From contig JANWJR010000046.1 of assembly GCA_025451835.1 (NCBI GenBank), positions 5,173-69,172 of the forward strand: DNA of 64,000 nucleotides, in the 5' to 3' direction. The translations under genes and the position numbers were made by a program. Positions 20,686 to 37,501 of the stretch are shown here, piece by piece; within the stretch, counting starts at the first letter, position 1; each line of letters starts with the position of its first letter. The notes beneath the pieces were generated by a model that saw nothing but the letters and a program-made list of their open reading frames with translations, did no database searches and was not told the DNA's origin. The DNA is from Candidatus Acidiferrales bacterium. GTDB taxonomy: Bacteria > Acidobacteriota > Terriglobia > Acidiferrales > UBA7541.

Positions 20686-21432
20686 TTATTCGGATTCCTG
20701 CATCGCTTTGAAGTGAGCTTCGAGTGCAGCACAATACTGGTGCTCCGCTTCAAGTTCCGCCTGCAGCTTCTTTACAAACAATTCGAGACGGCGGAGTTCG
20801 TTTCGTAATTTTTGAATCTCTGCAGCCGGATTCGTTCCGGCGCTTCGCGCGGATGGAACTGCTGCAGAACTGACGGACACTGCGGGCGTCGCGGGACGGG
20901 CCACTCCCGCCGCAGCAGGCACGCCTGGCGAGAATAAGCCCGTCAGTGGATTCGATGAAGGGTTTCCCGATGGGATTTTGACCACCGTTGCCGGCCGCGA
21001 GGAATCCGCCGCCTGTGATTGATTCACAACATTTTTCGGATTCAGAAGATTCTTCACCCGGAGGATCAGGTCCTGTGGCTGAAAAGGCTTGCGGATTAGT
21101 TCGTCCGCTCGAACAGACATGGCCTTCTCGGCCACGGTGCGATTCACAACACCGGACATGAGCAGAACGGGCGTCTTGCCAAATCGTTCGTGCTGCTTGA
21201 TAAATTCGCATACTTCGTAGCCATCTTTATCAGGCATGATCACGTCGGTGATCACGGCATCGGGCGCAGTCTCGCCGAATTGTGCCAGGGCGGAAGCCGC
21301 GTCGGCGCAAGTGATCACATGAATATTTTCCTTGCGGAATGCAATCTTGATAACTTCGCGCATGGTTGCGCTATCGTCGATAAAATACACCGTAGGAGTT
21401 CGTTCGGCTGTGAGGGTGGGCGTTTCACTCAT
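20686..21432 (-). CDS. response regulator: canonical REC, Pro/Ala/Ser-rich linker, C-terminal coiled coil
   Basis: REC carries DD, VITDVIMPDKDG, MSG and RKPF. The tail reads EIQKLRNELRRLELFVKKLQAELEAEHQ. Confidence 0.8.
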   Translation of the reverse strand: MSETPTLTAERTPTVYFIDDSATMREVIKIAFRKENIHVITCADAASALAQFGETAPDAVITDVIMPDKDGYEVCEFIKQHERFGKTPVLLMSGVVNRTVAEKAMSVRADELIRKPFQPQDLILRVKNLLNPKNVVNQSQAADSSRPATVVKIPSGNPSSNPLTGLFSPGVPAAAGVARPATPAVSVSSAAVPSARSAGTNPAAEIQKLRNELRRLELFVKKLQAELEAEHQYCAALEAHFKAMQESE

Positions 21433-22214
21433 GCGGACTCCTTCTCTACTTCGTCACGCTGGACGTCATCACGCTGAACTTCATCAAACTCGCGAAGCGC
21501 ATCGAGCAGCAAATCCGTTGCCGAACGGAGCACGGTGCGCTGTGTTGAGGCGGCGCCGTACACAAATTTGTAGACACCCTTCGCGGATTCCTGGCATGCT
21601 TTGACGATTTGCGTGACTGCCTCATCACCGAAGAACGTGCCGCACTCGGCGTGAACGATCTCGCCTCCTTCGAAGAAGATAATTCCATCCGTGTCCGACG
21701 CGTTGATGTGCAGCGCACCCGTCTGTCGCGCCTGACCCAGCATCTGTATCACGCCTGGAAGGTCCAGATGCGAAAGGCTGCCGCTCAAATCGGTATCGGC
21801 GCTCGAAAGCATTTGCGTGGGCTGAAAGCCATCCTGGCGGCTCAAGAGAAAGCGGCGCACGTGCGCGGCGATTTCCACCGGCCCGCGCGCCCTGTCGACG
21901 TAATCGTCGCAGCCCGCTCGATAGGCCTCGAGGAGAGCCTGGCCACCGCCCACTCCCAGCGCTATCAACGGAATGGTTGCCGTCTTTGGATCGGCACGCA
22001 GGATTGGCGCGATTTCGTACGCGCCCATCTCCCGTAAATTCGTGGCGCAGATGATCGCGGCAGGTACGTTCCTTTCGAGCATCGTGAGCGCGTACGCTCC
22101 CTGGGGGCTCGGTATGACTTCGAATCCGGCTTGTTTCAGCGCGTCACCAAGTCGCTTGGCGAAATACACGTTGCTGTCGATCAAAAGAATCCGCGGAAGT
22201 CCCGGGGCCGTCAT
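21429..22214 (-). CDS. pseudo-receiver domain protein with C-terminal DUF4388 (PATAN-like) domain
   Basis: REC-like fold, but the phospho-acceptor position reads AAIICATNL (no Asp). The C-terminus LSHLDLPGVIQMLGQARQTGALHI...GGEIVHAE is DUF4388-like. ATG 22214 makes an ATGA overlap with the upstream cheW. Confidence 0.7.
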   Translation of the reverse strand: MTAPGLPRILLIDSNVYFAKRLGDALKQAGFEVIPSPQGAYALTMLERNVPAAIICATNLREMGAYEIAPILRADPKTATIPLIALGVGGGQALLEAYRAGCDDYVDRARGPVEIAAHVRRFLLSRQDGFQPTQMLSSADTDLSGSLSHLDLPGVIQMLGQARQTGALHINASDTDGIIFFEGGEIVHAECGTFFGDEAVTQIVKACQESAKGVYKFVYGAASTQRTVLRSATDLLLDALREFDEVQRDDVQRDEVEKESA

Positions 22215-22693
22215 GGCTGCACCTGCGCGCCAACGGACGCACGTTCGGGGCCAGGTGCCGGAACGGCCGGCATCGCGAGGAGCAACTCGAGATCCAACAC
22301 AGGAATTTGCTCGCTTTCCACGTCCAGCTTTCCGCACATATACGCCGGATCATCCGAATTGGGAGGCTGCACTTTGCTGGTGACGAGCTCGCACTCGCCG
22401 TTCACCGGTATTGCAATCGGCTCGCTGGCATCTACGAAATTTCGGTCGGCAATCAAGTAGAACCGGTGCATCGGCGATTCGCGTCCAATCAAAATTTCCG
22501 CGGCATCGTAGACGGGCACAATGCGTCCGCGCCGAACGATAACACCAGCAACGAGAGGTGAGTTGTGCGGAAACGTATGCAAGTGCACGGGAGGAGCGAG
22601 TTCCATCACCGAGCCTGCCGGCAACGCAAAACGGCGGCTCCCGACCTGAAGCAGCACGAACGAGCAGAGATCTGGGATTCCCTTGGCGCTCAT
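22211..22693 (-). CDS. cheW: CheW-like coupling protein
   Basis: 160 aa. Contains FALPAGSVMEL ... VAGVIVRRGRIVPVYD. ATGA overlaps on both sides. Confidence 0.7.
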   Translation of the reverse strand: MSAKGIPDLCSFVLLQVGSRRFALPAGSVMELAPPVHLHTFPHNSPLVAGVIVRRGRIVPVYDAAEILIGRESPMHRFYLIADRNFVDASEPIAIPVNGECELVTSKVQPPNSDDPAYMCGKLDVESEQIPVLDLELLLAMPAVPAPGPERASVGAQVQP

Positions 22694-23223
22694 GCCTGCA
22701 CGGTTCCTTGCATTTTGTGCTGCGCGCCGAAAACTTCCGATATCCGGTCCAGGCGCTCGAATTCTTCCGGCGTCAAAAATCCGGACGGCTGCAGAACGGG
22801 AATCACATGATCGTCGACATATGCGAGGCCGCGGTACCAGCGCCTCTCATCAGAGGCAAATGCTCGCGGCAGCGGATGGATTGCAGAAACCTCCACCATC
22901 CGCTCGATTCGATCCACGAGAACAGCGACCCGCATCTGCCGGAGAATCAGAACAAGAGTGGGGCGAGTGACCGGCAAGCGGAAATGCGCGCAGGCATTCA
23001 CCACGTAGTACGTCCGGTGGTTCCGGCGGATCGTGTGGCGTATTTCTGGCAAATCCGATTGCTGCATTTCGAATGCCGCTCCTGCAAGGCTGTCCGTACT
23101 GCGAATTTCTTGCACCGAATCCGCCGCGATGGCGAACGTCTGCCTGCCTGCCGAAAACAGAATGATCGCTTCGGCACGATGTGCGCGTTTGGGCTTCACG
23201 GTATCGTGGCTGGCGAACCTCAT
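22690..23223 (-). CDS. cheW: CheW-like coupling protein (divergent)
   Basis: Contains FAIAADSVQEI ... GLAYVDDHVIPVL. ATG 23223 overlaps the cheB stop as ATGA. Confidence 0.65.
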   Translation of the reverse strand: MRFASHDTVKPKRAHRAEAIILFSAGRQTFAIAADSVQEIRSTDSLAGAAFEMQQSDLPEIRHTIRRNHRTYYVVNACAHFRLPVTRPTLVLILRQMRVAVLVDRIERMVEVSAIHPLPRAFASDERRWYRGLAYVDDHVIPVLQPSGFLTPEEFERLDRISEVFGAQHKMQGTVQA

Positions 23224-24341
23224 CGAACTCCCACCGGCACAGGGCGGCAAATTTGTGCGATGCGTTTCTCTATCGCAGCACCGATTTCGTCAAGGCCTAG
23301 CACTTCGTCAACGGCGCCAGTCTTGATCGCCTCCGCCGGCATGCCGAAAATCACGGAAGTTGCTTCGTCCTGCGCGATGACGTAACCGCCCGCCGCCTTC
23401 ACCGCCTTTACTCCCTTGGCGGCGTCGCCGCCCATTCCCGTGAGCACGACAGAAAGCGTCAGAGGGCGAGCAAATGCAGCGATCGATTCGAGCGCAACAT
23501 CAGCACACGGCCGGTAGCCATCAATGCGAGCTCCTGAGTCGAGCGCGATCTTGCCCATCGGTGTAAGCCGCAGATGATGCGAACCTGGACAGAGGTAAAT
23601 CATTCCTGGCTGTGCGAGGTCGTTCGTCTCCGCTTCTTTCACGGGCAACTGGGCGATCTCGGCGAGTTGCACCGTGAATTGCTTTGTAAATGCCGCGGGC
23701 ATGTGCAGCACCAGAAAAACAGCCGCGGCAAGATTCCGCGGTAATCCCGCGACGACGCGCATTACTGCCGCGGGACCGCCTGTGGACGCGGCAATTACGA
23801 CCATCGGGAATTTCCCGCCATTCTGCGACGCAAACGCGGAGCCCTGTGCGCCACTCGATCGAGATGGAGGGGGCACCGGTGCATGCGGCACTGGAAGTTT
23901 CGAGCGGGTGGCCGTGCGCACAACGCGAACTTTTGCGGCCATCTTCAGTTTTCGCGCCAGTTCTTCGCGAACTTTTCGCATGTCCAAGTCGATTCCGCTT
24001 GAGGGCTTCGGAACAAAATCGATCGCGCCCAACTCGAGCGCGCGCAGCGTGCTTGCCGCGCCTTCGCGCGATTCCGAGCTCACGATCACGATCGGCCGTG
24101 GATGCTGCGACATAATCAACTCTGTCGCCTGCAGCCCGTCGAGATGCGGCATGTTGATGTCCATGGTGATCACGTCGGGACGCAGCGATTCCGCCAGCGC
24201 GACCGCTTCGCGCCCATCGCGGCCTACACCCGCAACTTCGAGCTGCGGGTCCGCAGTGATGATCTCCTGGAGGACTTTGCACATGAATGCGGAGTCATCC
24301 ACCACGAGCACGCGAATTTTCTTTTCGGGAATCTTCATCAT
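23220..24341 (-). CDS. cheB: protein-glutamate methylesterase CheB (REC + methylesterase)
   Basis: IRVLVVDDSAFM, DVITMDINMP, VVIAASTGGP, LVLHMP, GMGGDAAKG. Confidence 0.9.
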   Translation of the reverse strand: MMKIPEKKIRVLVVDDSAFMCKVLQEIITADPQLEVAGVGRDGREAVALAESLRPDVITMDINMPHLDGLQATELIMSQHPRPIVIVSSESREGAASTLRALELGAIDFVPKPSSGIDLDMRKVREELARKLKMAAKVRVVRTATRSKLPVPHAPVPPPSRSSGAQGSAFASQNGGKFPMVVIAASTGGPAAVMRVVAGLPRNLAAAVFLVLHMPAAFTKQFTVQLAEIAQLPVKEAETNDLAQPGMIYLCPGSHHLRLTPMGKIALDSGARIDGYRPCADVALESIAAFARPLTLSVVLTGMGGDAAKGVKAVKAAGGYVIAQDEATSVIFGMPAEAIKTGAVDEVLGLDEIGAAIEKRIAQICRPVPVGVR

Positions 24342-24342
24342 C

Positions 24343-27309
24343 TTAGTCCTGCCGCACCTGCACTCCCGTATGCCGGCCTTGCGGCGCCTCGGAACCGACC
24401 AAGCTCTCCACGGTCGAGACCAACTGATCTTCCTGCACAGGCTTGGTCAAGAATCCTGACGCGCCTTCTTTCATCGCGCGATCGCGATGCTTCGCACCGG
24501 CTCGCGAGGTGACCACCAGCACTGGAATTTTTCGGGTGACCGGATCCTGCCGCAGATGAGCCATCAGTTCGTACCCGTTCATCCTGGGCATTTCCAGGTC
24601 CGTGATGACCAGATGGCATCCGGAGTGCGAAACAATTTCAGAGGCCTCTAGGCCGTCCGAGGCCAGCTTGACGCGATAGCCGGCTTTCTCGAGCATTCGG
24701 CCGACGAATTTCCGCACGCTGATCGAATCATCGGCAACGACTATGACGCGCTCGCTCTCGATCGCGTCAACTGCCTCGGCAGGGATCGCACCGGCAGCGA
24801 CAGCCTCCGCTCCCGGGGCGAACACGCGTGCCGCTGGTGAGGATGCAGGCAGGGCGTGCTGCTCGGCCATATCGCTGGCGGCCAAACGGTTCAGATCGAT
24901 CAACAGAATCAGGCTGCCGTCCGATGCAATCGTCGTACCGGGGAAGAGTTTGACGCGACGCAGATAGTCGCCCAGATTCTTGATAACGATTTCGTCTTTG
25001 CCGAGCACTTCGTCGACGACGACGCCAACATGTTTTCCCGCAACCTTGACGACAACCATGTGAAAGTAGCCATTGGTTGGCTCGAGCGGGGGCAGTGCGA
25101 GATGCACATCGAGGCGCACGACTTCGGTGACCACATCGCGCACGCGCGTCAACAACTTTCCGCCCACGTCCTCAATTTCTTCGGGCCGCAGCCTGCGGAT
25201 TTCTTCAATTACAGCTAGAGGTAACGCAAATTTCGACGTTCCGCAACGCACGAAGAGCGCCTGCGAAATGATTAGCGTAAGCGGGACCTTGACGGTGAAG
25301 CACGCGCCGCGCCCAATCTCGGAGCGAACTTCAATCTCGCCGTTCAGCGCGTGAACGTTCGCGCGCACGACGTCCAGACCAACGCCGCGGCCCGCAAGCT
25401 CCGTCATTGCCGATGCTGTGGTAAACCCAGGGCGGAAGATGAATTCGCGCATCTCGCGTTCCGTAAGCTCCGCCGCGGCAATTGGCGACATCTCACCGGA
25501 ATCGATGACGCTCTGTCGCACCAACTCGTAGTCAATTCCGCGCCCGTCATCTTCCACTTCGATGAAGATGTGATTGCCGCGATGATAGGCGCGCACCGCG
25601 ACGTGGCCGGTTTCGGTCTTGTCCGTTTGGCGTCGGGCCGAGACATCCTCGATTCCATGAGCGACCGCATTTCGCACGAGATGAATCAAGGGGTCGGAGA
25701 TATGTTGAATGATATTGTTGTCGAGTTCCGTGTCGGAACCTTCGAGTGAAAGCTCCACGGGCTTTCCGGTAGCATTTGAGGCATCGCGCGCCGTCCGTGA
25801 AAGCCTCGTGTACAGATTTCCAATAGGCACCATGCGGGCCGCCGTGATCTCATCTTGCAGGTGATGCGCGAGTTTGGTGAACTCGTCGATGTCGCTGTCC
25901 ACCCGGCCCATGAAGCCTTCGAGCTGGGTAAGGACTTCCGTAACATCCGCGGAAATTTCCGTAAGCGACCGCGACAAAATATTGAAATCATCGTACCGAT
26001 CCATCTCGAGTTCGCTGAATTCCAGGAGGCCGTCCGACGTGAGCGCGGACATGGACCCGAAATTCGGACGGAAAGTATCCATCTGCGGCGGATGGCTGCC
26101 AGGCACGAGCGAAGTCTGTAGCCGGCTGAATTCATGTTTCTCCTGAAAGTCGGAAATCTTCCCGCCGAGGCGCCCCTTTGAAAAAGTCAGGACCTCGACG
26201 AGTTTGGCGAGTTCGGAGAGCCGGCCAAGCATACGCGTGCGGTTGATCACCAGTTCGCCGACGGCGTTCATCATCCGGTCCAGCCGCTCAAGCGAAATGC
26301 GAACAGATTTTGCCTGTGGCAGCGCTTGCGATGCGGCTCGCCGCGAGTTCCCCGATGAAAGCATTGGTTCCGACGCCGCGCCCTGCTTTCCAGGTGCCGT
26401 TCCGGCGCCTTCAGCGAGATCTTCTTCCGGTGCCAGTTCAGAGATTCGAGCGAGGAACGGCCCAACGGCGGCGTGTATTTCTGCATCGCTCGCCCACTGA
26501 CGGTGTAAGAACTTTTTCAATACGTCCACGGACTCGAGGCATAGGTCCACGATCTCGGCGCTTGGCTGCAAAGCGCCATCTCGCATCCGCCCAATCAAAT
26601 CTTCCACGCGGTGGGCAACGGCTGCTAGCCGATGCAAGCCCACCTGTGCCGCGGAGCCCTTCACTGTGTGCATTGAGCGGAAAAGCCGGTGGATGTCTTC
26701 CGGGTTCGGGTTTCCCTCGAGCGCGAGCAGGCACTCGGTGACCGCCTGCAAATGCTCCTCAGCTTCGGGAATGAAGAATTCGAGAACCTCGGCGGGAACC
26801 TCACCATCTTCCGGCAAACTCACCGAGAATCCATTCGCATCGAATCCGCCTAGAACTGATTCGGCTTCCCTGGCATCGGCACTTGTTTCGCTGTCCGCGG
26901 TGCCGGTCGCTGGAGCCGTCGGGAACGCGAAAGAATATCGTTGCTTGAACGCAACGATATCGCCGGCTGTCTCCGCTCCCGTCGAACTAATCTGCAAGAG
27001 ATCGAATTCAAGGACGGAGATAGCATCGGAGATGAATTCGGTCAGCGGGCCGTGCATTTCCGGCGTGAGCGCGGCATTCATGGCGTAATGAAAAATGTGC
27101 GCCGTCTTGGCCGCTACCTCCGAAAAGAGCGGAAAGCCATAACTAGCAGACGTTCCGGTGAGGGTATGCGCTGCGATGTAAAGCTTTTCGAGATCCTCCG
27201 GCCGCGTGTGCGATTCTTGCAACAGACCGGAGTACTCGCGCAGATACTGGAGATGGTCCGAAGCCTCTTGAAGGAAGAGTTCGACCGATTCTTGATTTGG
27301 CCCGTTCAC
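24343..27309 (-). CDS. cheA: hybrid chemotaxis histidine kinase CheA: Hpt-Hpt-dimerisation-HATPase-CheW-REC
   Basis: Two Hpt boxes (AAHTLTGTSASYGF and SMHTVKGSAAQVGL). HLVRNAVAHGIE, DDGRGID, GRGVGLDVV, a P5 CheW-like domain, and a C-terminal REC (VVADDS, VITDLEMPRMNG, TKP). GTG 27309 forms GTGA with the cheR stop. The track ATG at 27378 would overlap cheR by 73 nt. Confidence 0.9.
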   Translation of the reverse strand: MNGPNQESVELFLQEASDHLQYLREYSGLLQESHTRPEDLEKLYIAAHTLTGTSASYGFPLFSEVAAKTAHIFHYAMNAALTPEMHGPLTEFISDAISVLEFDLLQISSTGAETAGDIVAFKQRYSFAFPTAPATGTADSETSADAREAESVLGGFDANGFSVSLPEDGEVPAEVLEFFIPEAEEHLQAVTECLLALEGNPNPEDIHRLFRSMHTVKGSAAQVGLHRLAAVAHRVEDLIGRMRDGALQPSAEIVDLCLESVDVLKKFLHRQWASDAEIHAAVGPFLARISELAPEEDLAEGAGTAPGKQGAASEPMLSSGNSRRAASQALPQAKSVRISLERLDRMMNAVGELVINRTRMLGRLSELAKLVEVLTFSKGRLGGKISDFQEKHEFSRLQTSLVPGSHPPQMDTFRPNFGSMSALTSDGLLEFSELEMDRYDDFNILSRSLTEISADVTEVLTQLEGFMGRVDSDIDEFTKLAHHLQDEITAARMVPIGNLYTRLSRTARDASNATGKPVELSLEGSDTELDNNIIQHISDPLIHLVRNAVAHGIEDVSARRQTDKTETGHVAVRAYHRGNHIFIEVEDDGRGIDYELVRQSVIDSGEMSPIAAAELTEREMREFIFRPGFTTASAMTELAGRGVGLDVVRANVHALNGEIEVRSEIGRGACFTVKVPLTLIISQALFVRCGTSKFALPLAVIEEIRRLRPEEIEDVGGKLLTRVRDVVTEVVRLDVHLALPPLEPTNGYFHMVVVKVAGKHVGVVVDEVLGKDEIVIKNLGDYLRRVKLFPGTTIASDGSLILLIDLNRLAASDMAEQHALPASSPAARVFAPGAEAVAAGAIPAEAVDAIESERVIVVADDSISVRKFVGRMLEKAGYRVKLASDGLEASEIVSHSGCHLVITDLEMPRMNGYELMAHLRQDPVTRKIPVLVVTSRAGAKHRDRAMKEGASGFLTKPVQEDQLVSTVESLVGSEAPQGRHTGVQVRQD

Positions 27310-28199
27310 AGGCTGCCCTCCATCATCAGGGCCGCTCTGCGGCTTTCCGCCAGAGCGATTTTGCGGTAAATCCGGCAACCGCCAACAACGACCGGCTCGA
27401 ATTTCACCGGAACGTTTGTAAGAGTCTCGGAATGGCCCAGGAAAAAATAACCGCCCGGCTCGAGCGCGTCGTAAAACCTGCGAAGAATCGCGAGCCGTCG
27501 TTCGTCGGAAAAATACATCAGGACGTTCATGCAGAAAATGCAGTCGAGCTTGCCGACGTACACCGATTCGGAGAGGTTCATTTGCGCGAAAGAAATCATT
27601 CGCCGAATCCGGGGCTTCACCTGGAAACCATGCTTCGTGTCTGAAAAATAAGTTTCGGCCTGTGGCAGCGAAAGATTCTGGATGCTGCGCTTGGAATAGA
27701 GGCCCCGTTCCGCATGGCGAAGCGCGCGGCGGCTGATGTCAGTGGCCAGGATTTCGATCTCCCAGGCCTCGGCGAATTTCAGCGATTCGCAAACCGTGAT
27801 GGCGATCGAATACGGCTCTTCGCCAGTCGAGCAACCGGCGCTCCAGATACGCAACGACCGCGGATTTTCCCAGAATTTTCGCTCCTGCACTTCCGGCAGA
27901 ATCTTTTTATCCAGTGCGTCGAATACGGCGGGATAGCGAACGAAGGACGTCTCCTGGGTGAGCAATCGTTCAAGCAACGCTTCATACTCGATGCTTGAAC
28001 CGCGAATCTGCCGCAACAGTGCCGTCCCGCTTGCGAGCCCTCGTTCCTCAAGATGTTCGCGCACACGAGTGGAGAAAAAACGTTCGCGCGAGGCATCGAA
28101 CAAGATTGCAGACCGCTGCTCGATCAGTCCGCGAATTTCGCCCAGCTCGGTGTCGCTGAGATTAACCGCTGTAATTGTCTGCTGTTTCATGTTCGGCAC
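27306..28199 (-). CDS. cheR: chemotaxis protein methyltransferase CheR
   Basis: 297 aa. CheR N-domain plus SAM-binding domain (IWSAGCSTGEEPYSIA, IFCMNVLMYF). Confidence 0.9.
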   Translation of the reverse strand: MPNMKQQTITAVNLSDTELGEIRGLIEQRSAILFDASRERFFSTRVREHLEERGLASGTALLRQIRGSSIEYEALLERLLTQETSFVRYPAVFDALDKKILPEVQERKFWENPRSLRIWSAGCSTGEEPYSIAITVCESLKFAEAWEIEILATDISRRALRHAERGLYSKRSIQNLSLPQAETYFSDTKHGFQVKPRIRRMISFAQMNLSESVYVGKLDCIFCMNVLMYFSDERRLAILRRFYDALEPGGYFFLGHSETLTNVPVKFEPVVVGGCRIYRKIALAESRRAALMMEGSL

Positions 28200-28234: not shown

Positions 28235-29677
28235 TTAACGGCTTGCGCCCACAGGTGCTGGCGGTCGCGCCTCTTCCGCCTCGCCCGACCGCGATGACTG
28301 TGAACGGAATTGCGCCAGCGCTTCGTTGAGCTGCTCGGACAGCTTCACCATGTGCCCGACCGTGGAAGCTGTCTGCCGCGCGCCCTGCGTGGTTTGCCGG
28401 GTGATCCCGGAGATGATTTGCATGGCGTTGGCCACACCCTCCGTGCCGCGCACCTGCTGCTTCGACGCGAGCGAAATTTCCTGAACCAGTTCGGCCGATT
28501 GGCGCACAACGCTGGAAATCGCTTCGAGCGCTTTCCCGGCTTGGTCGGCAAGTCCCGCGCCTGCCTCCACTTCGCGTGTGCCCTCTTCCATCACGACGAC
28601 CGCTTCGTTCGTCTCCGCCTGAATTGCCTTGATGAGTGCCGCGATGTCTTTCGTCGCGCTGCGCGAGTGCTCGGCGAGCTTGCGAACTTCGTCGGCGACG
28701 ACCGCAAATCCGCGGCCGGCATCACCCGCGCGAGCCGCTTCGATGGCCGCGTTCAGTGCGAGCAGGTTGGTCTGCTCCGTGATGTCGTTAATGACGTTGA
28801 TGATCTCCGAAATTTCGAGCGAGCGATCGCCGAGGGATTTGATCTTCTTCGCTGACGCCTGCACCGATGCTCGAATGCGCTGCATTCCATCGAGCGTGTC
28901 GCGCACCGCGCGGTTACCCTGTTCGGCCGCATCGAGAGCGCGACGGGCCGCTTCGGCGCTGGCTTCCGCGTTGTTGGACACCTGTTTCATCGAAACCGTC
29001 AGCTCTTCGACAGCCGAAGAAGTATTGGTAATTTCCTGATCTTGCTGCGTGGCGCCCGCTGTCATGTCGTCGGTGGCTTCGAGAATCTGGTTGGCGCTTC
29101 CGCTGACATCGATGGCAGCTTTGCGAACACGTTCCAGAACCTTCACGAAGTTGTCCAGCATGAAGTTCACGGAGTCAACCACGTTACCAAGCGCGTCGTT
29201 AGTCACCTTGCCGCGAATGGTCAGGTCGCCGCGAGCGACCTGATTGATGGTGGTAAGCAGGTCAGTGATGCTCCGCTGCAGCGATTCTTGGGCCTGCTGA
29301 CTAGTGATCGCGTGTGCCACTTTTGCGGCGCTGCGGTTGAAGTTTTCCGCAATGAAGCCGAACTCATCATTCGACTCGACCTCTGCGCGGGCGCGCGCAT
29401 CGCCAGCGACAAGCCGTTCGGAAAATTTTGCAAGCTCGCCCACGGGTTCCAGCACGCGCTTGCTCAGCACATAAATGAGCGAAAGGGCACCAAGCACCGC
29501 TAGCGCGGCAGCTCCAAGCAAAGCTCCGCTGGCGCTTCCCGGCAAGGAAGATATGTCGAGCAGCGATAATCCACCCGAGTGCGCGCCGGCGTAGTAGGCA
29601 AGGCCTAGGACGCCGAATAACGCCACGCTGGTCCAGAAGGCCAGCAACCAGATTGTGGAACTCAAACGAGCTTTCAT
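28235..29677 (-). CDS. methyl-accepting chemotaxis protein with two TM segments, a minimal outer loop and HAMP
   Basis: Conserved signalling tip ([36 protein letters not shown]). Only about 15 residues separate TM1 and TM2. Confidence 0.9.
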
Positions 29678-29759: not shown

Positions 29760-30287
29760 TCATATCACCGGCACGGCAAACACTTCGGTTAAACGCCGCA
29801 GGTCAACCAAAAGCGCTAGGCGATCTTCATGGCGTAACATGCCGCGGCAATGCGGCACATCGTGCGGCGCCTGATCGAGCAGCGCGTCCTCTGTCGCCGA
29901 ATACGTCCCGATCACTTCATCCGTCGCGATGCCCACGCGCAGATCGTCACGATTTGCGTCACCTAAAATGGCGGCGACCACCACGTGTTTAGGCAACAAG
30001 CCCGGGCGACGTCCCTCCGTAAATGCGATGTCGATCAGAGGCACGATCGTTCCCCGCAGATTGAAGACTCCCATCAGGAATGCCGGAGCCAGTGGAACCC
30101 GCGTTACTAAAGGCCAGTCCACCACTTCTTCGACTTCCAGCACCGAGAGGCAAAACCGCTCCCGCCCTGCGCGAAAAACGCAGTACTGGCGCTCCGGAAG
30201 CCGCTCCTCGGAGGACGGGTCGCCTTCGAGAAATGCCCCATCGTCGAGCTCGCCGGGCAGTTGCGAGTTTTCCTGTTCCTTAGCCAT
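29760..30287 (-). CDS. cheW: CheW coupling protein
   Basis: 175 aa. Contains FCLSVLEVEEV ... LMGVFNLRGTIVPLID. TAATG junction with cheY. Confidence 0.85.
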   Translation of the reverse strand: MAKEQENSQLPGELDDGAFLEGDPSSEERLPERQYCVFRAGRERFCLSVLEVEEVVDWPLVTRVPLAPAFLMGVFNLRGTIVPLIDIAFTEGRRPGLLPKHVVVAAILGDANRDDLRVGIATDEVIGTYSATEDALLDQAPHDVPHCRGMLRHEDRLALLVDLRRLTEVFAVPVI

Positions 30288-30655
30288 TATGCGAACCTTT
30301 TCACCGCTCCGATAAGTTCCTCGGGTGTAAAAGGCTTGGCAACGAATCCGTTTGCGCCTTGCTGCTCGCCCCAGTACCGGTCGCTCGGCGCCGTCTTCGA
30401 TGTGACCAGGATCACGGGAATCTGGGAATAATTAGCCTGGTTCTTCAGATCGCGGCACACTTGAAAGCCGTTCCTGGCTGGCATCACGACGTCCAGCAGA
30501 ATCAGATTCGGACGTTCTTCCTCGATCGCTTCTTCGACTTTGGTCGGATCGGAAATTCCAACCGAATGAAATCCGCCTTGCTGCAAGAATGATTGGATAA
30601 GATGAACCTCGGCGGGCGAGTCATCGACGATCAATATTTTCTTCACCACAGCCAT
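30287..30655 (-). CDS. cheY: CheY-like single-domain response regulator
   Basis: KILIVDDS, LILLDVVMPARNG, VTSK, AKPF. The start is ATG 30655 or one of the GTG codons just downstream. The track start at 30697 is upstream of the putative promoter. Confidence 0.85.
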   Translation of the reverse strand: MAVVKKILIVDDSPAEVHLIQSFLQQGGFHSVGISDPTKVEEAIEEERPNLILLDVVMPARNGFQVCRDLKNQANYSQIPVILVTSKTAPSDRYWGEQQGANGFVAKPFTPEELIGAVKRFA

Positions 30656-30782: not shown

Positions 30783-31481
30783 CTAGCCAGCATCAACCCG
30801 CAGAGACACTACTTCCGTCTCAGCTTGAGAATCTTTCTCACCAGCACGCATTTCCGCCGCCAGCGATGAGAATCGTTGCATGATTTCGTTGAGCCGCAGC
30901 GCCATCGTGTGAATCGTCTCGATTTGGTCGCGGCTTTCCGCAGACATGTAGCCGGGCTCAAGCAAAAGCAAGTCGGCGTTTCCGAGCACCGAGGTAAGCG
31001 CGTTATTCACGCTCGGCCGCATTTCAAGCATGTATTTGCCAAGCGTGGCTTGGCCTTGGCTTTCCAGAGCAAGCTTCTCAGCGCGCTGAGCGCGACCGGC
31101 CGCTTCTGTCCGTCGAAGTGCTTCACTGGAAATGAGGATCAAGGTCCCCGCCCAACCATCGTGACGGGGCACGACAAGTACGTATGGATGTTCGGCCCGA
31201 AACAGTGCAACGTCCGTTTGATCCTCGGCAACGTAGATGACCACAGAAGATGAAGAAATCCTCAAGAACGCGAGAATCGTAGCGGGACTGCCCGTGCGGA
31301 CAGGCCCCAGAATGACGATCTGATATCCGGCAGCGCTGCCTGCATGGCAAACGCCGCTGGCAATCAGTGTGATTTCGGGTACGTGGCGCTCCGTCTGCCA
31401 GCGGGCGACAACGGAACGCGAAAATTCCGTGTCGTCCGATACAATCAGGACGCTGGATTGGTTCAAGTGAGACGACCTCAT
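30783..31481 (-). CDS. pseudo-receiver + His-less DHp-like coiled-coil protein (no ATPase domain)
   Basis: 232 aa. REC-like strand pattern (VLIVSDD, QIVILGP, VVIYVAE, VLVVPR) without an acceptor Asp. A HisKA-like helix LEMRPSVNNALTSVLGNADLLLLEP has Leu at the phospho-His position. Confidence 0.5.
   Translation of the reverse strand: MRSSHLNQSSVLIVSDDTEFSRSVVARWQTERHVPEITLIASGVCHAGSAAGYQIVILGPVRTGSPATILAFLRISSSSVVIYVAEDQTDVALFRAEHPYVLVVPRHDGWAGTLILISSEALRRTEAAGRAQRAEKLALESQGQATLGKYMLEMRPSVNNALTSVLGNADLLLLEPGYMSAESRDQIETIHTMALRLNEIMQRFSSLAAEMRAGEKDSQAETEVVSLRVDAG
30816..30822 (-). promoter_or_regulatory. TGAGACG heptamer, candidate activator-binding element
   Basis: The plus strand reads CGTCTCA. 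The element is about 120 nt upstream of the 30700 -24 element. It pairs with AGAGAC on the other strand at 30802-30807 (GAGAC/GTCTC inverted, 9-nt spacer). Confidence 0.3.
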
Positions 31482-31490: not shown

Positions 31491-33068
31491 TTAGGGTTGG
31501 AGCTTTTCTGCTTCCTCGATAACGGAAAGCAGACGCTTGGTGCTGATTCCGAGATTTACAGCAGCTTCCGTGTTTTTCGCGCGCTTTGCCGTTTCGACGC
31601 GCCCTTGGAAATAGGAAACTTCGCCGCGAGCAAGCGCTAAGGCAGACCCCAACCGAGTCAGGTCTCCCGAGCGCTTTCGCACATCCATGGCAACAGCAAG
31701 GAGAGCACGGGCCACGACGGCGCGGCGCAAATCTTCCGCCTCCTGATCTCCTTCCGTCACAAAGGCAGCCACTTCCCACGATGAGAGCAGCACTTTCGTA
31801 TCTTGCAGCACGACCGTGGACATCGAACGTCCTCGGGATGGCGGCGCGGCTATCAATTGCTCCCAAATCGAATCCAGACACTTTTCTGCATCGATTGGCG
31901 GAGCAGCGGAAGTCGCGTCAGTTCCGGGTTTCGCGGCCTTGATTGCTCCAGCAGAAGGTGCTTCGTTCGGAACAGGGGCTGCCTGATCTGCATGCATCTC
32001 TTCCGGCTTTGCGGCCGCAAGTAATGGCGGCAAATCGTCCGAACGAACATTCGCGGATGCGGAAACCTGATCGCCCCGAGTTTCTTCATTTTCATGAGCT
32101 TCTATCGCAAAAAACTGCTGCGTAGCCGCGGAATGAACGCGCACCAGCGCCTCTTCGAGATCGGCCCGCAATGCAAAGAGCTGGTCGAAAGCACGGGTAA
32201 CCGAATTTTCGGTGTAGTCCTTATGAAAAGGCTGACGCCAGTTCTCGCAATAATACCGGAGTTGCGTAGTTGTCTCTGCCGCGGAGAACCCGGCGCGCCG
32301 GCAGTCCACTGTTTTTACACCGCTCGCATCCAGGTGCTCGACGGCCGCCTTCATCGCGTTCAAATCCGCATGAAGCATGCGGATGAAAGCTCGCCGGAGC
32401 CGAAAGTTAAAGCGGCAGAAAGCAACGAGAGCGGCCGGATCGTAAAACATCTGACCCGCCGAATCCTTCAACAGACGCCCCTGTTCAAGGACACCATGCT
32501 CCATCATGTCGCGAAGGCTCTGGCAGTTTTCGAGCGTGTTGAGGATTTCATCGAGTGGCGCGCACCACTCGACGGGCGTGGAATCCGCTGCGCCAAGCAC
32601 CGGCTGGAGAACTCGCGCGACATCCGCCAGGCTGAACTCGCTGCGATAAAGCTCCTCGGGAGCGCACAAAGCGAAGTACTGGACCAGTAGCAGGTCGATC
32701 TTGTCCCGATCGGCTGAAGCTTTCTCCGGCTTCTTCAACTGACGCTGCAGAAACGCGCGAAGGCTGGCTTCGCTTGCATTCAGGATCTCGGGAGGAAGCT
32801 GCCGAATCTGAAAGGCACGGACCTTTTCGTCGATCGTATTGAGCCATTCCAAATCGCGATCGAATATCTCACGCGTCGGGCGTGCCGGCGGCAGCTCCCC
32901 GGCAGCGTAAAGCAACGCTACCAAATCGAATTGTGCGGCAAGCGCCGCATAGAGTGGGTACGCAAGGCGCGCCTCGTTCCACATGGTAGCCGGGTCGACA
33001 GTAACACTCGATTTTGATTTGTTCGTGCCGGCCAGAGAATTTATCGGAATCGGAGTTTTTATCGTCAT
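31491..33068 (-). CDS. hypothetical protein, 525 aa, no recognisable domain
   Basis: Long ORF with ordinary coding composition and no TM segments. Central Ala/Pro/Asp-rich low-complexity stretch. ATG 33068 forms an ATGA overlap with the upstream small ORF. Confidence 0.6.
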   Translation of the reverse strand: MTIKTPIPINSLAGTNKSKSSVTVDPATMWNEARLAYPLYAALAAQFDLVALLYAAGELPPARPTREIFDRDLEWLNTIDEKVRAFQIRQLPPEILNASEASLRAFLQRQLKKPEKASADRDKIDLLLVQYFALCAPEELYRSEFSLADVARVLQPVLGAADSTPVEWCAPLDEILNTLENCQSLRDMMEHGVLEQGRLLKDSAGQMFYDPAALVAFCRFNFRLRRAFIRMLHADLNAMKAAVEHLDASGVKTVDCRRAGFSAAETTTQLRYYCENWRQPFHKDYTENSVTRAFDQLFALRADLEEALVRVHSAATQQFFAIEAHENEETRGDQVSASANVRSDDLPPLLAAAKPEEMHADQAAPVPNEAPSAGAIKAAKPGTDATSAAPPIDAEKCLDSIWEQLIAAPPSRGRSMSTVVLQDTKVLLSSWEVAAFVTEGDQEAEDLRRAVVARALLAVAMDVRKRSGDLTRLGSALALARGEVSYFQGRVETAKRAKNTEAAVNLGISTKRLLSVIEEAEKLQP

Positions 33069-33436
33069 GGTTTGATAATCCAATTGCCCACTTCGCTCAC
33101 AAAGCGAGCTGCCACAGCTTTCCGGCCATCGTGATATCTCACGGCGACCACCGTCGCATTCGCATCGAGCGACCCATCGGAATTCACTAGCCGCAACCGG
33201 TCTTCGAATTCGAGCGGCAACACAGAAGGAAACAGCACCTCCTGCGCCGTGCCAAACTCGATCACCGTCTGCTCCTGCAATCGCCTACTGGAACCCAGCG
33301 CCACGACGCGCACCGGAATGTGAATTGCCGATACGTTCAAGAAAAGCTGAGCGAGTTTTTCAACGCAGCTTTGCCCGAGAGAAATAGTTGCTGTTTCCAA
33401 TTCGCGTGGCACAGAGGCCCCCGTCCGCCACCTCAT
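33065..33436 (-). CDS. small hypothetical protein, possibly a degenerate PilZ-like beta-barrel
   Basis: ATG 33436 is preferred: the track start at 33529 is a TTG upstream of the putative promoter. The stop is coupled (ATGA) to the next gene. The beta-rich segment IPVRVVALGSS...LRLVNSDGSLDANATVVAV lacks a canonical RxxxR. Confidence 0.4.
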   Translation of the reverse strand: MRWRTGASVPRELETATISLGQSCVEKLAQLFLNVSAIHIPVRVVALGSSRRLQEQTVIEFGTAQEVLFPSVLPLEFEDRLRLVNSDGSLDANATVVAVRYHDGRKAVAARFVSEVGNWIIKP

Positions 33437-33609: not shown

Positions 33610-33637
33610 GTCTCAGCCTGATACGAATTCGTCTCAC
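33610..33637 (-). promoter_or_regulatory. two TGAGACG heptamers 21 nt apart, one inside a near-palindrome GAGACGAATTCGTATC
   Basis: The plus strand reads CGTCTCA at 33610-33616 and 33631-33637. ACGAATTCGT (33624-33633) is a perfect 10-nt palindrome. The elements are 88-109 nt upstream of the 33528 -24 element. Confidence 0.35.
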
Positions 33638-33684: not shown

Positions 33685-33708
33685 TAGCGTCGTCTCAAAG
33701 ACGAGCTA
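33685..33708 (-). terminator. hairpin overlapping the EBP stop codon; weak intrinsic terminator or palindromic protein-binding site
   Basis: The RNA would read UAGCUCGUCU-UUG-AGACGA(C)GCUA followed by UUUCGG: 10 bp with one bulge and only 3 U. It also contains a third TGAGACG copy (33691-33697 on the plus strand as CGTCTCA). Confidence 0.3.
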
Positions 33709-35112
33709 CGGGAGGACTTTGACTTCCAAAGTTTCTGCGTGCGGCGACTGCGCGGGAATCTGGTAGCGCTTCAGCTTTCGATAGAGTGTGGCGCGGCTGA
33801 TACCGAGCATTTTCCCTGCGAGGGCTTTGTCCCCGCCCGCTTGCTCGAAAACGCGCAGGATCGTCATGCGTTCGAGATCCGCAAGGGCTGTTGTGGATAG
33901 CTCAGCCGTTTCAGCAGCTACCGGGCCGTCGTCTGGAGTTGCACGGACATTGGGAGGGAGATCGCCCAGATCAATAACACGGTGGTCGCCCAGAGCGACT
34001 GCCCGCGCGATGCAATTTTCGAGCTCCCGGACGTTTCCCGGCCAATCGTATTGGAGAAAGCTCTTCATGGTCGCCGGGGTGACTTGAATGTTCTCTCCCG
34101 GCGCGTAGCGGTCCAGAAAACAATGAACGAGCTGCGGAATATCGGAGCGCCGCTCGCGCAACCCCGGAAGGTGCACTGTTACAACGTTCAGCCGGAAATA
34201 CAGGTCCTTGCGGAAGGTGCCAGCGCGATACGCGGCCTCGAGGTCGCGATTCGTGGCGGCGATAACGCGGACGTCCACAGGGATTTTTTGATTGCTGCCA
34301 ACGGGCCGCACTTCTTTTTCCTGCAGGACCCGCAGTAGCTTCGCCTGCATCTCGAGCGGCAGTTCGCCGATTTCGTCAAGAAAGATGGTTCCGCCATTCG
34401 CGGCGTAAAAGAGTCCAGCTTTTGATTTGAGCGCGCCGGTGAACGAGCCTTTTTCGTGGCCGAACAGCTCGCTTTCCATCAGCGTAGGGACCAGAGCGCC
34501 ACAATCGACTGCGATGAACGGCATCTGTGCCAGCGGCCCGCGGAAGTGAATCGCCCGGGCCACTAGCTCTTTTCCCGTCCCGCTCTCGCCACTAATGAGC
34601 ACCGGCGTGCGCGTTTCCTTCAGGCGCGAGACCATCCGCATCACATCTTGAACTTTGGCGGACGTGCCTGCGATTCCATCGAGTTGCGCATCCGTCTCGA
34701 TGCGCTCGCGCAGAAACTGATTTTCCGTCACCAGCCGGACTTTCTCGGCCATGCGCTGCAGGAGTTGCCGCAATTTCTCGACGCGGAACGGCTTTTCAAT
34801 GTAATCGTAAGCGCCCTGACGCATCGCATCGACGGCAGATTCGATCGAGCCGTGTCCCGTCATTATCGCAATTTCCGTGCGCGGGAGATTCTCTTTCACC
34901 TTTCGGAGCAAGTCCGTGCCGGAAAGGCTGGGTAACTTCAGGTCCGTCACCACCAGATCCGGTGGAGACGTTTCCAACATCTCCAGCGCCGTTTCCGCGT
35001 TTTCGGCCTCCGCGCACACATACCCAAGGCCCTGCCCGACAGTCATGCAAAGCCGGCGGATGCTTTGCTCGTCGTCCACAATTAGAAAGCGCAGGTGTAT
35101 TTCGTCCCTCAT
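33706..35112 (-). CDS. sigma54-dependent NtrC-family response regulator (REC-AAA+-Fis HTH)
   Basis: [43 protein letters not shown], and C-terminal [16 protein letters not shown] 35112 overlaps the upstream stop as ATGA. Confidence 0.9.
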
Positions 35113-35516
35113 GGCTGGCCAATCGTTTTTTCGACCGCGCTCAGGAGTTGTTGAACGCGGAAGGGCTTTTCGACGCACGGCGTGCCTGCCTGCGCGAGCA
35201 GCGCGATCGTCTCATCGCTGGCCGTGTCGCCCGTGATGAAGACGATTCGCGAGGCCAGTTCCGGGCGATGCCGGCGAATCCAGTCATGCACATCCGTTCC
35301 GGTGATTCCTCCTGGTGTTCGGAAATCTGAAATCACGCCGTTGAACTTCTCAGCGGCAAGCAATCGCAGCCCTTCGGCCGCCGAGCATGACGGAACCACT
35401 TCGTAACCACGCCGCTCGAGAGCAATTCGCAGAAACGCCGCCACCGATGCCTCATCCTCAATCACCAGAATGCGGCTGCGGCCGGCGGCAGCTACCGTGT
35501 CGCGCCCGCCCCTCAT
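35109..35516 (-). CDS. single-domain response regulator (canonical REC)
   Basis: ILVIEDE, VISDFRTPGG, FITGD, EKPF. ATG 35516 overlaps the kinase stop as ATGA. Confidence 0.8.
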   Translation of the reverse strand: MRGGRDTVAAAGRSRILVIEDEASVAAFLRIALERRGYEVVPSCSAAEGLRLLAAEKFNGVISDFRTPGGITGTDVHDWIRRHRPELASRIVFITGDTASDETIALLAQAGTPCVEKPFRVQQLLSAVEKTIGQP

Positions 35517-37501
35517 TGCGCCATCTCGGCTGAGAGAGATTGCATCGCGTCGTTCGCTGCGGGCAGGCGAACCAGGAACGTGCAGCCAGGTCCATTGGAA
35601 TTGTTCTGGGCAAGAATTTCGCCGTGATGCGCCTGCACGATTCCGTAGCAAATGCTCAGGCCGAGCCCGGTGCCTTTTCCCACTTCTTTTGTGGTGAAAA
35701 AAGGATCGAAGATACGATCGGGCTGCGCAATGCCGGGACCGTTGTCGCGGAAAAGAATTTCAAGATGGCCCCCACGCCGCAACGTCTCGATTTCGATTTT
35801 TCCGGATCGCCGCGTTTCATGCACGGCGTCGTACGCATTATTCAGTATGTTCAAGAACACCTGCTGCAATTGATGCGGATCGCCGACGGCAAGCGGCAGG
35901 TCCTCATCGTACCGCTCCACCACCTCCACGCCGTGATTCGAAAAATCGTAAGCGCGCAACTTCATCGTCTGCCGCAGAACAGAATTCACTTGCAAGGGCT
36001 CGCGCTGCGCCGGCATCTGGCGTGCAAAGCTTAGAAGATTTTGGACGATCACGCGAGTGCGCTGCGCTTCTTGCAAAATCACGCGCAGTTCCTCCTTGGC
36101 CTCTTCCGGTATCCCAGGATTCTCCAGAAGCAAATCCGTGAAGCCGACAATCGCGGCCAGCGGATTGTTCACTTCGTGCGCCACGCCGGACACGAGTTGG
36201 CCCAGCGCCGCCATTTTTTCAGTATGCATAAGCTTCGCCTGCAGGTCGGCGGCATCCGTAATATCCGTCATCACCACAACGATGCTGTTGATATCTCCCT
36301 GCTCGTCTTTCATCGGGCTGAGGCTGATGGAGAACTGCCCGGCCGTGCCATTCGCGCGCAGCAAAGGAATTTCGATATTGCCGCCCGCAGTTCCGTCCAG
36401 CGTTCGGCGCAGTGCTTCAGCGAGCAGCGGCCGTCTGGCGACCGGGACTCGTTCGACCAGTGGACGCCCTAACAGATCCTGTTCCTTATATCCCGCTTCG
36501 AAGCAGCGGCGATTCGCATAGCTGACGAGCCCCGCCGTGTCCAGCACGAGAATCATGCTTTCGGTGTTGTTCAGAATGTTCTTGTTAAAGTCGCGTTCGC
36601 GACGGTACCGCCGCTCGGCCTCGCGGCGGTCCGTAATGTCCTTCAGAACGTGGATCGTTCGCAATTCGTCATCGAGCCCGTTGTGGATGCGCGCGGAAGA
36701 AACCAAATAGAGTTTTTCGGCGGCTTCGTGAACAAATTCTTCACGGCCGGCTTTCACATCGCGACAGAACGGACAGCGGGCCGATTGTGCTGGCGTCCCA
36801 AGGATGCCGAGTTTGCCGATGTCCCGGCCCACGGCCTCGGGGGGCCGCACCGCAAGGAGTTCGGCGAGTGAGTGATTTAGACGCAGGACTCGATTGGCTG
36901 CGTCATGAACGACGATGTAGTCCGAAATAGCATCGAAGTCTTCCACCCATTGTTTTCGTGATTGCTCGATCCGCGAGAATAGCCGGACGTTCTCGAGCGC
37001 GACGGAAGCGTGGCTCACGAGAGCCTCAAGTAACTGTGCCTCGGCATCCGGCAGTTCGCGTGTCAGATCCACAAGGCATAGGACACCCAGCAAAGCGCCA
37101 TCGCTCCCTATCAATCTCGCTAGAACCAGGGCGTGCCATCCGAGAGCTTCGGCCAGTTCGATTCCCAGAGCTTTGGCGGCTGATACCGGCCGCAAGTCCA
37201 CTCCCGGAATCGCACAGAGTTGTCCCAGCAGGCCCGCCAGCCTGCGTTGCACTGAGGTATCCCAATGCTGCGCAGGACCGCTCAAAGCCCCCATATCCCA
37301 GTCGGCGCCGCGCGTCAGCACTAGCACCGAAGCACGTGCGCCCAGGATTTCGGCGGCTCGCATCGTCAACCTGCGCGCAAACTCCTGCGTGCCAACGGAT
37401 GGGTTCAGCTCAAGTGTTGTCGCGGAGAATTGCCCTAGCAGCGTCTCAAATGACCCATCGAGGCGCGAGGGTGCTTCCCGGGTTCGTTTTAGCGCACGCA
37501 T
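35513..37501 (-). CDS. cytoplasmic sensor histidine kinase (GAF-PAS-PAS-HisKA-HATPase)
   Basis: 662 aa, no TM segments. H-box HEVNNPLAAIVGFTDLL, N-box LNILNNAYDA, G-boxes RDNGPGI and GTGLGLSI. Confidence 0.9.
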   Translation of the reverse strand: MRALKRTREAPSRLDGSFETLLGQFSATTLELNPSVGTQEFARRLTMRAAEILGARASVLVLTRGADWDMGALSGPAQHWDTSVQRRLAGLLGQLCAIPGVDLRPVSAAKALGIELAEALGWHALVLARLIGSDGALLGVLCLVDLTRELPDAEAQLLEALVSHASVALENVRLFSRIEQSRKQWVEDFDAISDYIVVHDAANRVLRLNHSLAELLAVRPPEAVGRDIGKLGILGTPAQSARCPFCRDVKAGREEFVHEAAEKLYLVSSARIHNGLDDELRTIHVLKDITDRREAERRYRRERDFNKNILNNTESMILVLDTAGLVSYANRRCFEAGYKEQDLLGRPLVERVPVARRPLLAEALRRTLDGTAGGNIEIPLLRANGTAGQFSISLSPMKDEQGDINSIVVVMTDITDAADLQAKLMHTEKMAALGQLVSGVAHEVNNPLAAIVGFTDLLLENPGIPEEAKEELRVILQEAQRTRVIVQNLLSFARQMPAQREPLQVNSVLRQTMKLRAYDFSNHGVEVVERYDEDLPLAVGDPHQLQQVFLNILNNAYDAVHETRRSGKIEIETLRRGGHLEILFRDNGPGIAQPDRIFDPFFTTKEVGKGTGLGLSICYGIVQAHHGEILAQNNSNGPGCTFLVRLPAANDAMQSLSAEMAQ

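Follow-up and report, generated by a model that had tools for sequence, protein, structure and literature searches.

A conserved gene block of Candidatus Acidiferrales that probably forms a sigma-54-dependent chemosensory regulon

Our analysis of a 64-kb stretch of DNA from Candidatus Acidiferrales (this whole stretch is referred to below as the window) has indicated that 16 signalling genes on the minus strand, at 20686-37501, and a divergent che operon of eight genes probably make up one conserved, sigma-54-dependent chemosensory regulon of this group. The minus-strand genes encode a sensor histidine kinase (HK), a single-domain response regulator (REC1) and an NtrC-type sigma-54 enhancer-binding protein (EBP), then a trio of poorly annotated proteins (a small protein, a 525-aa protein and a 232-aa protein), and then ten chemosensory proteins. 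The last two of these are a pseudo-receiver joined to a PATAN domain (the PATAN protein) and a receiver followed by a linker and a C-terminal helix (REC-CC). This block had been described before from its letters and open reading frames (the sequence-only reading). All 16 of its open reading frames were reproduced, each of the domain calls was backed by Pfam, and the nine start/stop overlaps were all found again: ATGA at 35513, 35109, 33065, 23220, 22690, 22211 and 21429, GTGA at 27306 and TAATG at 30287. Larger gaps lie between the EBP gene and the small gene (176 nt) and between the 232-aa gene and cheY (127 nt), and two others measure 82 nt and 44 nt. A scan of ten window proteins against NCBIfam returned no equivalog above cutoff.

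The arrangement of these genes is not due to chance. Searches with all window proteins (tblastn) recovered the same order in all of about 56 species-level genome loci: the divergent operon with its TonB_C-like and MCP2 genes, HK, REC1, EBP, the small gene, the 525-aa gene and the 232-aa gene, followed by CheY, CheW, the methyl-accepting chemotaxis protein (MCP), CheR, CheA, CheB, two further CheW genes and the PATAN gene. The genome loci were taken with 10-kb flanks and the last gene, REC-CC, lies beyond them; hence, it was examined in metagenome loci centred on the PATAN gene. It directly follows the PATAN gene in 68/68 of the metagenome loci that reach far enough, and it aligns over its full length. 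A transglutaminase gene is found 3′ of REC-CC in some loci only, and the end of the operon was therefore placed at 20686. The closest genome-locus record is 90% identical. In a distant locus, L059, the trio and the che genes through PATAN are still together, with the 525-aa protein at 37-41% identity. A subclade (L043-L048) is missing HK and REC1 and has kept the EBP, which is 79-86% identical in all relatives, including those without the HK. The statement of the sequence-only reading that the blocks belong together is thus borne out by the retained synteny and by the sigma-54 promoters and TGAGAC upstream elements that they have in common. As separate observations, the EBP gene of L043-L048 faces the divergent operon across a longer intergenic region (~540 nt) in which the third promoter, P3, and its TGAGAC sites are kept, and two loci with full acidobacterial synteny (L024 and L046; 525-aa protein 64-67% identical) come from metagenome-assembled genomes labelled Verrucomicrobiia and Candidatus Binatia. 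These two are probably mis-binned contigs or mislabelled genomes.

Three sigma-54-type promoter elements (P1, P2 and P3) were recognized with the pattern TGG-N8-[T/G]TGCA, one before the trio, one before cheY and one before the divergent operon. In each of them the -24 GG and the -12 GC stand at 10-nt spacing before the start of an operon. P1 is kept at the same position in 53/56 relatives. When the intergenic regions between the EBP gene and the small gene are aligned, TTTGG...[G/T]TGCA is invariant and spaced like a -24/-12 element. P2 was found in 57/57 relatives at a fixed offset, and P3 in 54/54. At these sites the TGG and the TGCA do not vary, and the spacers do. Elsewhere, the same pattern has 34 matches in 2.3 Mb, or 0.015 per kb. 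Each promoter is also preceded by a hexamer: between -200 and -60 relative to the -24 element, all loci compared contain TGAGAC or its complement GTCTCA (54/54 for P1, 57/57 for P2 and 49/49 for P3), where 0.07 would be expected per 140 nt, and P1 and P3 mostly have two copies. At P1, two TGAGAC(G) copies lie about 108 and 87 nt upstream of the -24 TGG in 53/54 loci. At P3, the columns of the upstream elements are at least 90% conserved in an alignment of 55 loci, and at least two sites are present in 49/49. The distant loci L059 and L062 show the same cis design before the small gene and before cheY. Sigma-54 promoters before che clusters have been predicted previously, in Geobacter (PMC2577667), and sigma-54 control of such clusters is as such not a new proposal; what is new here is the set of three conserved sigma-54-type promoters with TGAGAC.

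Because conserved sigma-54 promoters and TGAGAC repeats precede all three units, the trio and both che clusters are most likely a single regulon driven by the NtrC-type activator that is encoded between these promoters. The EBP carries the GSFTGA loop in its AAA+ domain, a Fis-type helix-turn-helix and canonical receiver residues, and the simplest reading of the sequence is that it would bind the TGAGAC repeats. AtoS-like proteins were the best NCBIfam similarity of the HK, below cutoff. Several other searches for regulatory elements were negative. A strict sigma-54 consensus (TGGCAC-N5-TTGC, up to 2 mismatches) is not enriched in the window, with 76 matches found and 72 expected. Scans for sigma-70 promoters and intrinsic terminators gave fewer matches than shuffled sequences and none at the operon borders. 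Rfam has no match in the window, so there is no cyclic di-GMP (c-di-GMP) riboswitch in the P1 leader. Two other short sequences were conserved near the promoters: TCGCA-N5-GCGAA between the TGAGAC and the -24 element of P2, at about -45 (window ~30705-30745, minus strand), and GTCGCA directly 5′ of the distal TGAGAC of P3 (37610-37620, plus strand). These may be the site of a second factor or part of a longer activator site.

Based on these observations, we propose a mechanism in which the cytoplasmic GAF-PAS kinase would control the NtrC-type activator, with the single-domain REC1 as a side branch. The activator would bind the TGAGAC repeats and open the three sigma-54 promoters. P3 would then serve the classical, probably flagellar F1-like che operon, P1 the three-gene accessory module (the PilZ-like, 525-aa and pseudo-receiver/His-less DHp proteins) and P2 a ten-gene pathway of the alternative cellular function (ACF) or type IV pilus (Tfp) type. 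In this last pathway, the membrane-anchored MCP, a sensor-less protein of class 40H with two HAMPs, would form arrays with the three CheW proteins and CheA1, and CheR and CheB would provide adaptation. CheA1 is predicted to phosphorylate CheY and REC-CC, and the PATAN protein would serve as an effector or adaptor that cannot itself be phosphorylated. The genes with their residues and conservation and the promoter and upstream elements were observed directly, and we infer from them which protein binds TGAGAC, how phosphoryl groups are passed on and what the cellular output is.

The chemosensory core looks to be of the ACF/Tfp type when judged by architecture and gene order. This assignment was made because its CheA combines two Hpt domains and a receiver with a long dimerisation domain and lacks P2, its MCP is a sensor-less 40H protein, and its gene order is that of Pil-Chp. 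A survey of 13,673 CheA proteins found that ~93% of those with multiple Hpt domains are ACF or Tfp proteins, that receiver fusions are concentrated in the F3, F5, ACF and Tfp classes and that the longest dimerisation domains belong to Tfp (PMC10782961). In CheA1, a His is present in both Hpt domains, which were matched to each other by hhalign with a probability of 95%. The extended dimerisation domain covers about 165 residues (~334-497) and the receiver lies at 856-967. Several Hpt domains, a C-terminal receiver and the lack of a P2 domain together are expected of a Tfp-type CheA, and the same architecture is also seen in ACF. Searches of CheA1, the PATAN protein and REC-CC against PDB sequences returned generic CheA or receiver matches, which do not discriminate between classes; for CheA1, the core is aligned from residue 470 of the protein onwards. 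The transmembrane helices of the MCP are joined by a loop of ~20 aa, with no sensor domain. Compared with Tsr (36H), its signalling domain carries a symmetric pair of 14-residue insertions, and it can be aligned to PcaY, the Pseudomonas putida receptor 6s18, without any gap, which places it in class 40H. The MCP is also the most conserved protein of the locus (84-92% identity across relatives). The sequence-only reading had proposed an alternative-function pathway coupled to transcription and/or polarity. Its non-flagellar CheA-REC core is likely and has gained support from the multi-Hpt CheA without P2, the 40H MCP and the PATAN output; the coupling to transcription needed to be modified, as discussed below. 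A side observation concerns the gap between the MCP and CheR genes (28191-28234, minus strand), which is 44 nt here and about 50-70 nt, without flanks, in relatives. GC-rich inverted repeats are frequent in this gap, their sequence varying by species, and they may set the MCP:CheA stoichiometry by partial termination or by processing.

Eight receivers were aligned with E. coli CheY, and six of them are functional and two degenerate. The acidic pocket, the Thr/Ser and the Lys are complete in REC1, the EBP, CheY, the CheA receiver, CheB and the last protein, REC-CC. The two receivers that had been called pseudo are indeed degenerate, and conserved as such. The PATAN protein is a weak receiver by Pfam, with Ser13, Ala57 in place of the Asp and Arg109 in place of the Lys; these residues are kept in 75-76/76 sequences (the Ala in 75/76). 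In the 232-aa protein, the region of the phospho-Asp is missing altogether in the alignment with E. coli CheY, and in 58/58 sequences Gly59 occupies the Asp site and Arg155-Pro156 the His site of the DHp-like helix. The only Pfam match of this protein is a sub-threshold HisKA at residues 159-207.

CheY and the two proteins encoded at the 3′ end of the operon are the candidate outputs of the pathway. The PATAN protein is 73-85% identical across the relatives, and a homologue search listed only close relatives (76-99% identity) among its best 120 matches. In Synechocystis, PATAN is an output domain that binds PilB1/PilC, as reported for PixE and PixG only (bioRxiv 10.1101/2021.06.11.447907), and PATAN genes have been linked to S-motility in M. 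xanthus and to mglA/mglB neighbourhoods. By this analogy, the likeliest target of the PATAN protein would be the type IV pilus motor, a suggestion to which we give slightly less than an even chance. In REC-CC, residues D19, D20, D63, S93 and K115 are invariant in 71 sequences, and the C-terminus is conserved and the linker variable. Receiver proteins with non-enzymatic C-terminal extensions, encoded or acting with a CheA-REC pathway, are a point of likeness to the Frz system of M. xanthus, and the sequence-only reading had compared REC-CC with FrzS and RomR. The analogy with FrzS fails: FrzS has a pseudo-receiver and a long coiled coil, whereas REC-CC has a canonical, invariant phospho-acceptor set and a conserved C-terminal helix of only ~45 aa. 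The analogy with RomR is doubtful. RomR consists of a receiver, a Pro-rich linker and a Glu-rich C-terminus with an invariant Trp and Pro (PMC3441718), and its homologues have been reported in Acidobacteria (PMC3441718, PMC4546325). The variable Pro/Ala/Ser linker of REC-CC is RomR-like, but the conserved C-terminal 45 aa contain neither the Trp nor the Pro; this comparison was made with RomR by its described features only (PMC3441718).

With regard to the trio, the small gene exists as the sequence-only reading had claimed, but its start is not that of the longest open reading frame, and the conserved GTG at 33412 was used instead. An AlphaFold2 (AF2) model of the protein (pLDDT 66) has nearly all of its best PDB fold matches, including the top thirteen, among PilZ folds, although these matches are weak (E 5e-3 or worse, TM score about 0.5). 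No Pfam or NCBIfam family matched the small protein even at E<=10, and the Pfam PilZ HMM was also silent. Most homologues have an R-I-P-V-R motif, with His31 in this window, and no D/NxSxxG was found at the canonical distance; the c-di-GMP motifs are therefore incomplete. The 525-aa protein has no match in Pfam (E<=10) or NCBIfam, no PDB fold at E<=1e-3 (Foldseek) and no PDB sequence at E<=10 in a profile search. It had been labelled an orphan, a label that no longer applies: more than 3400 close homologues at 64-72% identity were found, all unnamed or 'hypothetical', and a full HMMER scan yielded 531 clusters at 50% identity, with members as low as about 31% identity. Some homologues carry the name Hpt at JGI. 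This was rejected, since hhalign of the 525-aa protein against Hpt1 and Hpt2 of CheA1 gave a probability below 1% and the control (Hpt1 against Hpt2) gave 95%. Two homologues with about 30% identity were found in other settings, one between cheB-like and cheW-like genes (L061:960-2474) and one standing alone between thiC and ccmE (L060:10001-11554).

Since homologues are also found inside other che clusters (L061), the 525-aa protein may represent a new family that serves chemosensory systems as scaffold or input. For the trio as a whole, a role of this kind is the most interesting possibility because of its predicted co-transcription from P1 and its co-conservation with a sensor-less MCP. The trio would then be an unrecognised accessory unit of chemosensory arrays, providing input or anchoring for the MCP and co-regulated by a dedicated sigma-54 activator. 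We offer this proposal tentatively and consider it more likely to be wrong than right.

Pil-Chp of P. aeruginosa has the gene order pilG/pilH-pilI-pilJ-pilK-chpA-chpB-chpC, and the P2 operon has the same order of cheY, cheW, mcp, cheR, cheA-REC with several Hpt domains, cheB and cheW. Further similarities are a CheA without P2 and with a C-terminal receiver, a 40H MCP and more than one CheW. In contrast, CheA1 has two Hpt domains and ChpA eight or nine, one upstream CheY takes the place of PilG and PilH, and the MCP of the window has no periplasmic domain. The 3′ extras (the third CheW, the pseudo-REC-PATAN protein and the REC-linker-helix protein), the adjacent sigma-54 activator with its promoters and the absence of pil genes nearby (64-kb window) also set the locus apart from Pil-Chp. 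The cyanobacterial Tax/Pix systems resemble it in that a plain CheY and a protein with a PATAN domain are both encoded in a chemosensory operon that also has a CheA-REC hybrid. However, the cyanobacterial proteins are PATAN-REC with a functional Asp, and here a REC-PATAN protein with a dead receiver is found, followed by a second, phosphorylatable REC-helix protein. To our knowledge, the Synechocystis Tax operons have neither CheR nor CheB; the acidobacterial cluster has both. The locus thus resembles Pil-Chp, cyanobacterial Tax and the Che3/CrdSA system of M. xanthus in different respects, and at least one defining feature of each is absent from it. Literature searches found no published description of this acidobacterial cluster.

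The likeness to Che3/CrdSA, an ACF system, raises the question of which way the transcriptional link runs. In M. xanthus, the che cluster adjoins an NtrC-type activator with its own NtrB-like kinase, and CrdA is phosphorylated by CrdS and dephosphorylated by CheA3 (PMC3147164). In the window, too, the HK and EBP genes adjoin a che cluster that encodes a CheA-REC hybrid, and CheA1 could, by analogy, set the phosphorylation of the EBP, with transcription as the output and the GAF-PAS kinase as a second input. The two Hpt domains of CheA1 could serve different receivers, and in L043-L048 the EBP keeps its receiver without an adjacent kinase, so that another kinase must act on it there. We nevertheless regard this design as unlikely. 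In Che3, a CheY is absent and CrdA serves as the output (PMC3147164), whereas the locus described here encodes a canonical CheY and two further receiver-type proteins, one of them phosphorylatable. Moreover, the only link visible in the sequence runs in the opposite direction, from promoters of the type used by the activator, which sit before the che genes themselves, to those genes. The link to transcription claimed by the sequence-only reading is hence present, but its visible direction is from the EBP to the che genes, and signalling from CheA to the EBP, as with CrdA, fits less well with a cluster that has its own CheY. The two designs are compatible, and a Che3-like arrangement would add a feedback loop to the regulon that we favour.

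A further explanation is an ordinary motility hierarchy, with the HK and EBP as a FleS/FleR- or FlgS/FlgR-type pair and both che clusters as flagellar paralogues. Many bacteria express flagellar and che genes with sigma-54 and activators of the NtrC type, and the predicted sigma-54 promoters in Geobacter stand before che clusters (PMC2577667). The EBP scores against the FlbD and FlgR models of NCBIfam, though below AtoC and NtrC and under all cutoffs, and the second operon is classical, with a CheA that has P2, with CheX and with an MCP that is probably 44H. We consider this explanation quite improbable, given that the architecture of CheA1 (two Hpt domains and a receiver without P2) is mainly an ACF/Tfp one, that neither the PATAN nor the REC-linker-helix protein, with which the first cluster ends, is a flagellar component, and that the 64-kb window holds no flagellar genes. 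Still less credible is a mere adjacency, in which the two-component system, the trio and the che operon would be unrelated in function. In its favour, the three blocks are set apart by gaps of 176 and 127 nt, and one distant 525-aa homologue stands alone (L060). Against it, ~56 species genomes share one gene order, which is still seen at 37-41% identity, the promoter type and the upstream hexamer have been retained before the trio and the che operon in distant loci, and another distant 525-aa homologue sits between cheB-like and cheW-like genes (L061).

Several observations weigh against the single regulon that we propose. The pattern used for the promoters has five matches in the window, which is the chance level (4.0 +/- 2.0 in shuffles), and what supports P1, P2 and P3 is consequently their position, their conservation and the upstream element paired with them; the two other matches in the window are without TGAGAC. 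That the local EBP, rather than another activator, acts on TGAGAC is deduced from the sequence, and in L062 the gene 5′ of the trio is Ada-like and not an EBP. The PATAN protein has a reversed domain order and a dead receiver when compared with characterised PatA-type regulators, and the trio proteins are without an assigned role. Finally, no flagellar, type IV pilus or rpoN genes were found within the window, and the output is not anchored by gene context.

Acidobacteria are among the most abundant soil bacteria, their surface sensing and movement are almost unstudied, and Candidatus Acidiferrales is uncultured. The locus offers a compact, testable circuit with one activator, one hexamer repeat, three sigma-54 promoters and, apparently, two pathways that are switched on jointly. 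It ties the three strongly conserved proteins of the trio to a non-canonical pathway, and PATAN behind a dead receiver is a new arrangement. Should the link to the pilus be true, the control of type IV pili by PATAN would extend from cyanobacteria to Acidobacteria. If the trio serves for input or as a scaffold, it would reveal how a sensor-less receptor is fed.

The positions of the features are collected in Table 1. The second che operon was not included in the sequence-only reading and is part of the same apparent regulon. Its eight genes encode, in order, a TonB_C-like protein, MCP2, CheW, CheR, CheA2, CheB2, CheY2 and CheX, mostly with 4-nt overlaps. The protein at the head of the operon is secreted (116 aa, with a signal peptide). 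MCP2 has 4HB and HAMP domains and aligns without gaps to TM1143; on this sequence comparison, it probably belongs to class 44H. CheA2 has the architecture Hpt-P2-dimerisation-HATPase-CheW, and the operon as a whole is probably a classical set of the flagellar F1-like kind.

Table 1. Features of the regulon and their positions in the window (AF2, AlphaFold2; aa, amino acids)
Feature	Position	Strand	Length	Description
REC-CC	20686..21432	-	248 aa	Last gene of the operon; phosphorylatable REC, variable Pro/Ala/Ser linker, C-terminal helix of ~45 aa
Pseudo-receiver-PATAN protein	21429..22214	-	261 aa	N-terminal receiver; PATAN (PF14332, DUF4388/PatA_N) at residues 144-246, E=1e-16
CheW3	22211..22693	-		Divergent; Pfam CheW 2e-15
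CheW2	22690..23223	-		Divergent; Pfam CheW 2e-10
CheB	23220..24341	-		Methylesterase with REC (Pfam)
CheA1	24343..27309	-	988 aa	Two Hpt, dimerisation domain, HATPase, CheW, C-terminal REC; no P2 domain (Pfam)
CheR	27306..28190	-		Methyltransferase (Pfam)
MCP	28235..29677	-	480 aa	Two transmembrane helices, two HAMP-like segments, 40H signalling domain; HAMP and MCPsignal (Pfam)
CheW1	29760..30287	-		Pfam CheW 7e-23
CheY	30287..30655	-	122 aa	CheY-like single-domain response regulator, canonical residues (Pfam)
P2	30685..30700	-		Sigma-54-type element TGGTTGCGGACTTGCA, 30 nt 5′ of the cheY ATG
232-aa protein	30783..31481	-	232 aa	Pseudo-receiver and His-less DHp-like helix; no catalytic domain
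P2 upstream TGAGAC	30817..30822	-		Inside the 3′ end of the preceding gene
525-aa protein	31491..33068	-	525 aa	Helical N-domain (~26-325), disordered Ala/Pro-rich linker, conserved C-domain (~394-521); alignment and AF2
Small protein	33065..33412	-	115 aa	Conserved GTG start and ribosome-binding site; possible PilZ-like beta-barrel fold (AF2)
P1	33513..33528	-		Sigma-54-type -24/-12 element TGGCCTTGCTCGTGCA, 101 nt 5′ of the GTG of the small gene
P1 upstream TGAGAC(G) copies	33610-33615, 33631-33636, 33692-33697	-		Alignment
EBP	33706..35112	-	468 aa	NtrC-type sigma-54 activator; REC, AAA+, HTH_8; Sigma54_activat 2e-69 (Pfam)
REC1	35109..35516	-	135 aa	Single-domain response regulator, canonical E-D-D-T-K; ATGA overlaps at both ends (Pfam)
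HK	35513..37501	-	662 aa	Cytoplasmic sensor histidine kinase; GAF, two PAS, HisKA, HATPase_c (Pfam)
P3 upstream elements	37552..37657	+		Palindrome TCTCAATTTGAGTCAAG at 37552-37568; TGAGAC at 37621-37626 and 37652-37657
P3	37776..37791	+		Sigma-54-type element TGGCATGGCCCGTGCA, 48 nt 5′ of the TonB_C-like gene
Second che operon	37839..45859	+		Divergent, eight genes (Pfam); conserved divergent partner in all genome loci
CheY2	44916-45365	+		Within the second che operon

Two neighbouring features were noted in addition. A gene at 45917-46783 on the minus strand, convergent with cheX, encodes a protein of 288 aa that ends in a PilZ domain (E=1e-11) and has an N-terminal part of ~190 aa without assignment. 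At 483-7455, also on the minus strand, the window carries a block for purine/urate catabolism, which encodes an allantoicase-OHCU decarboxylase fusion, an amidohydrolase, xanthine-dehydrogenase-type FAD and molybdopterin subunits and a deaminase of the cytidine/guanine type.

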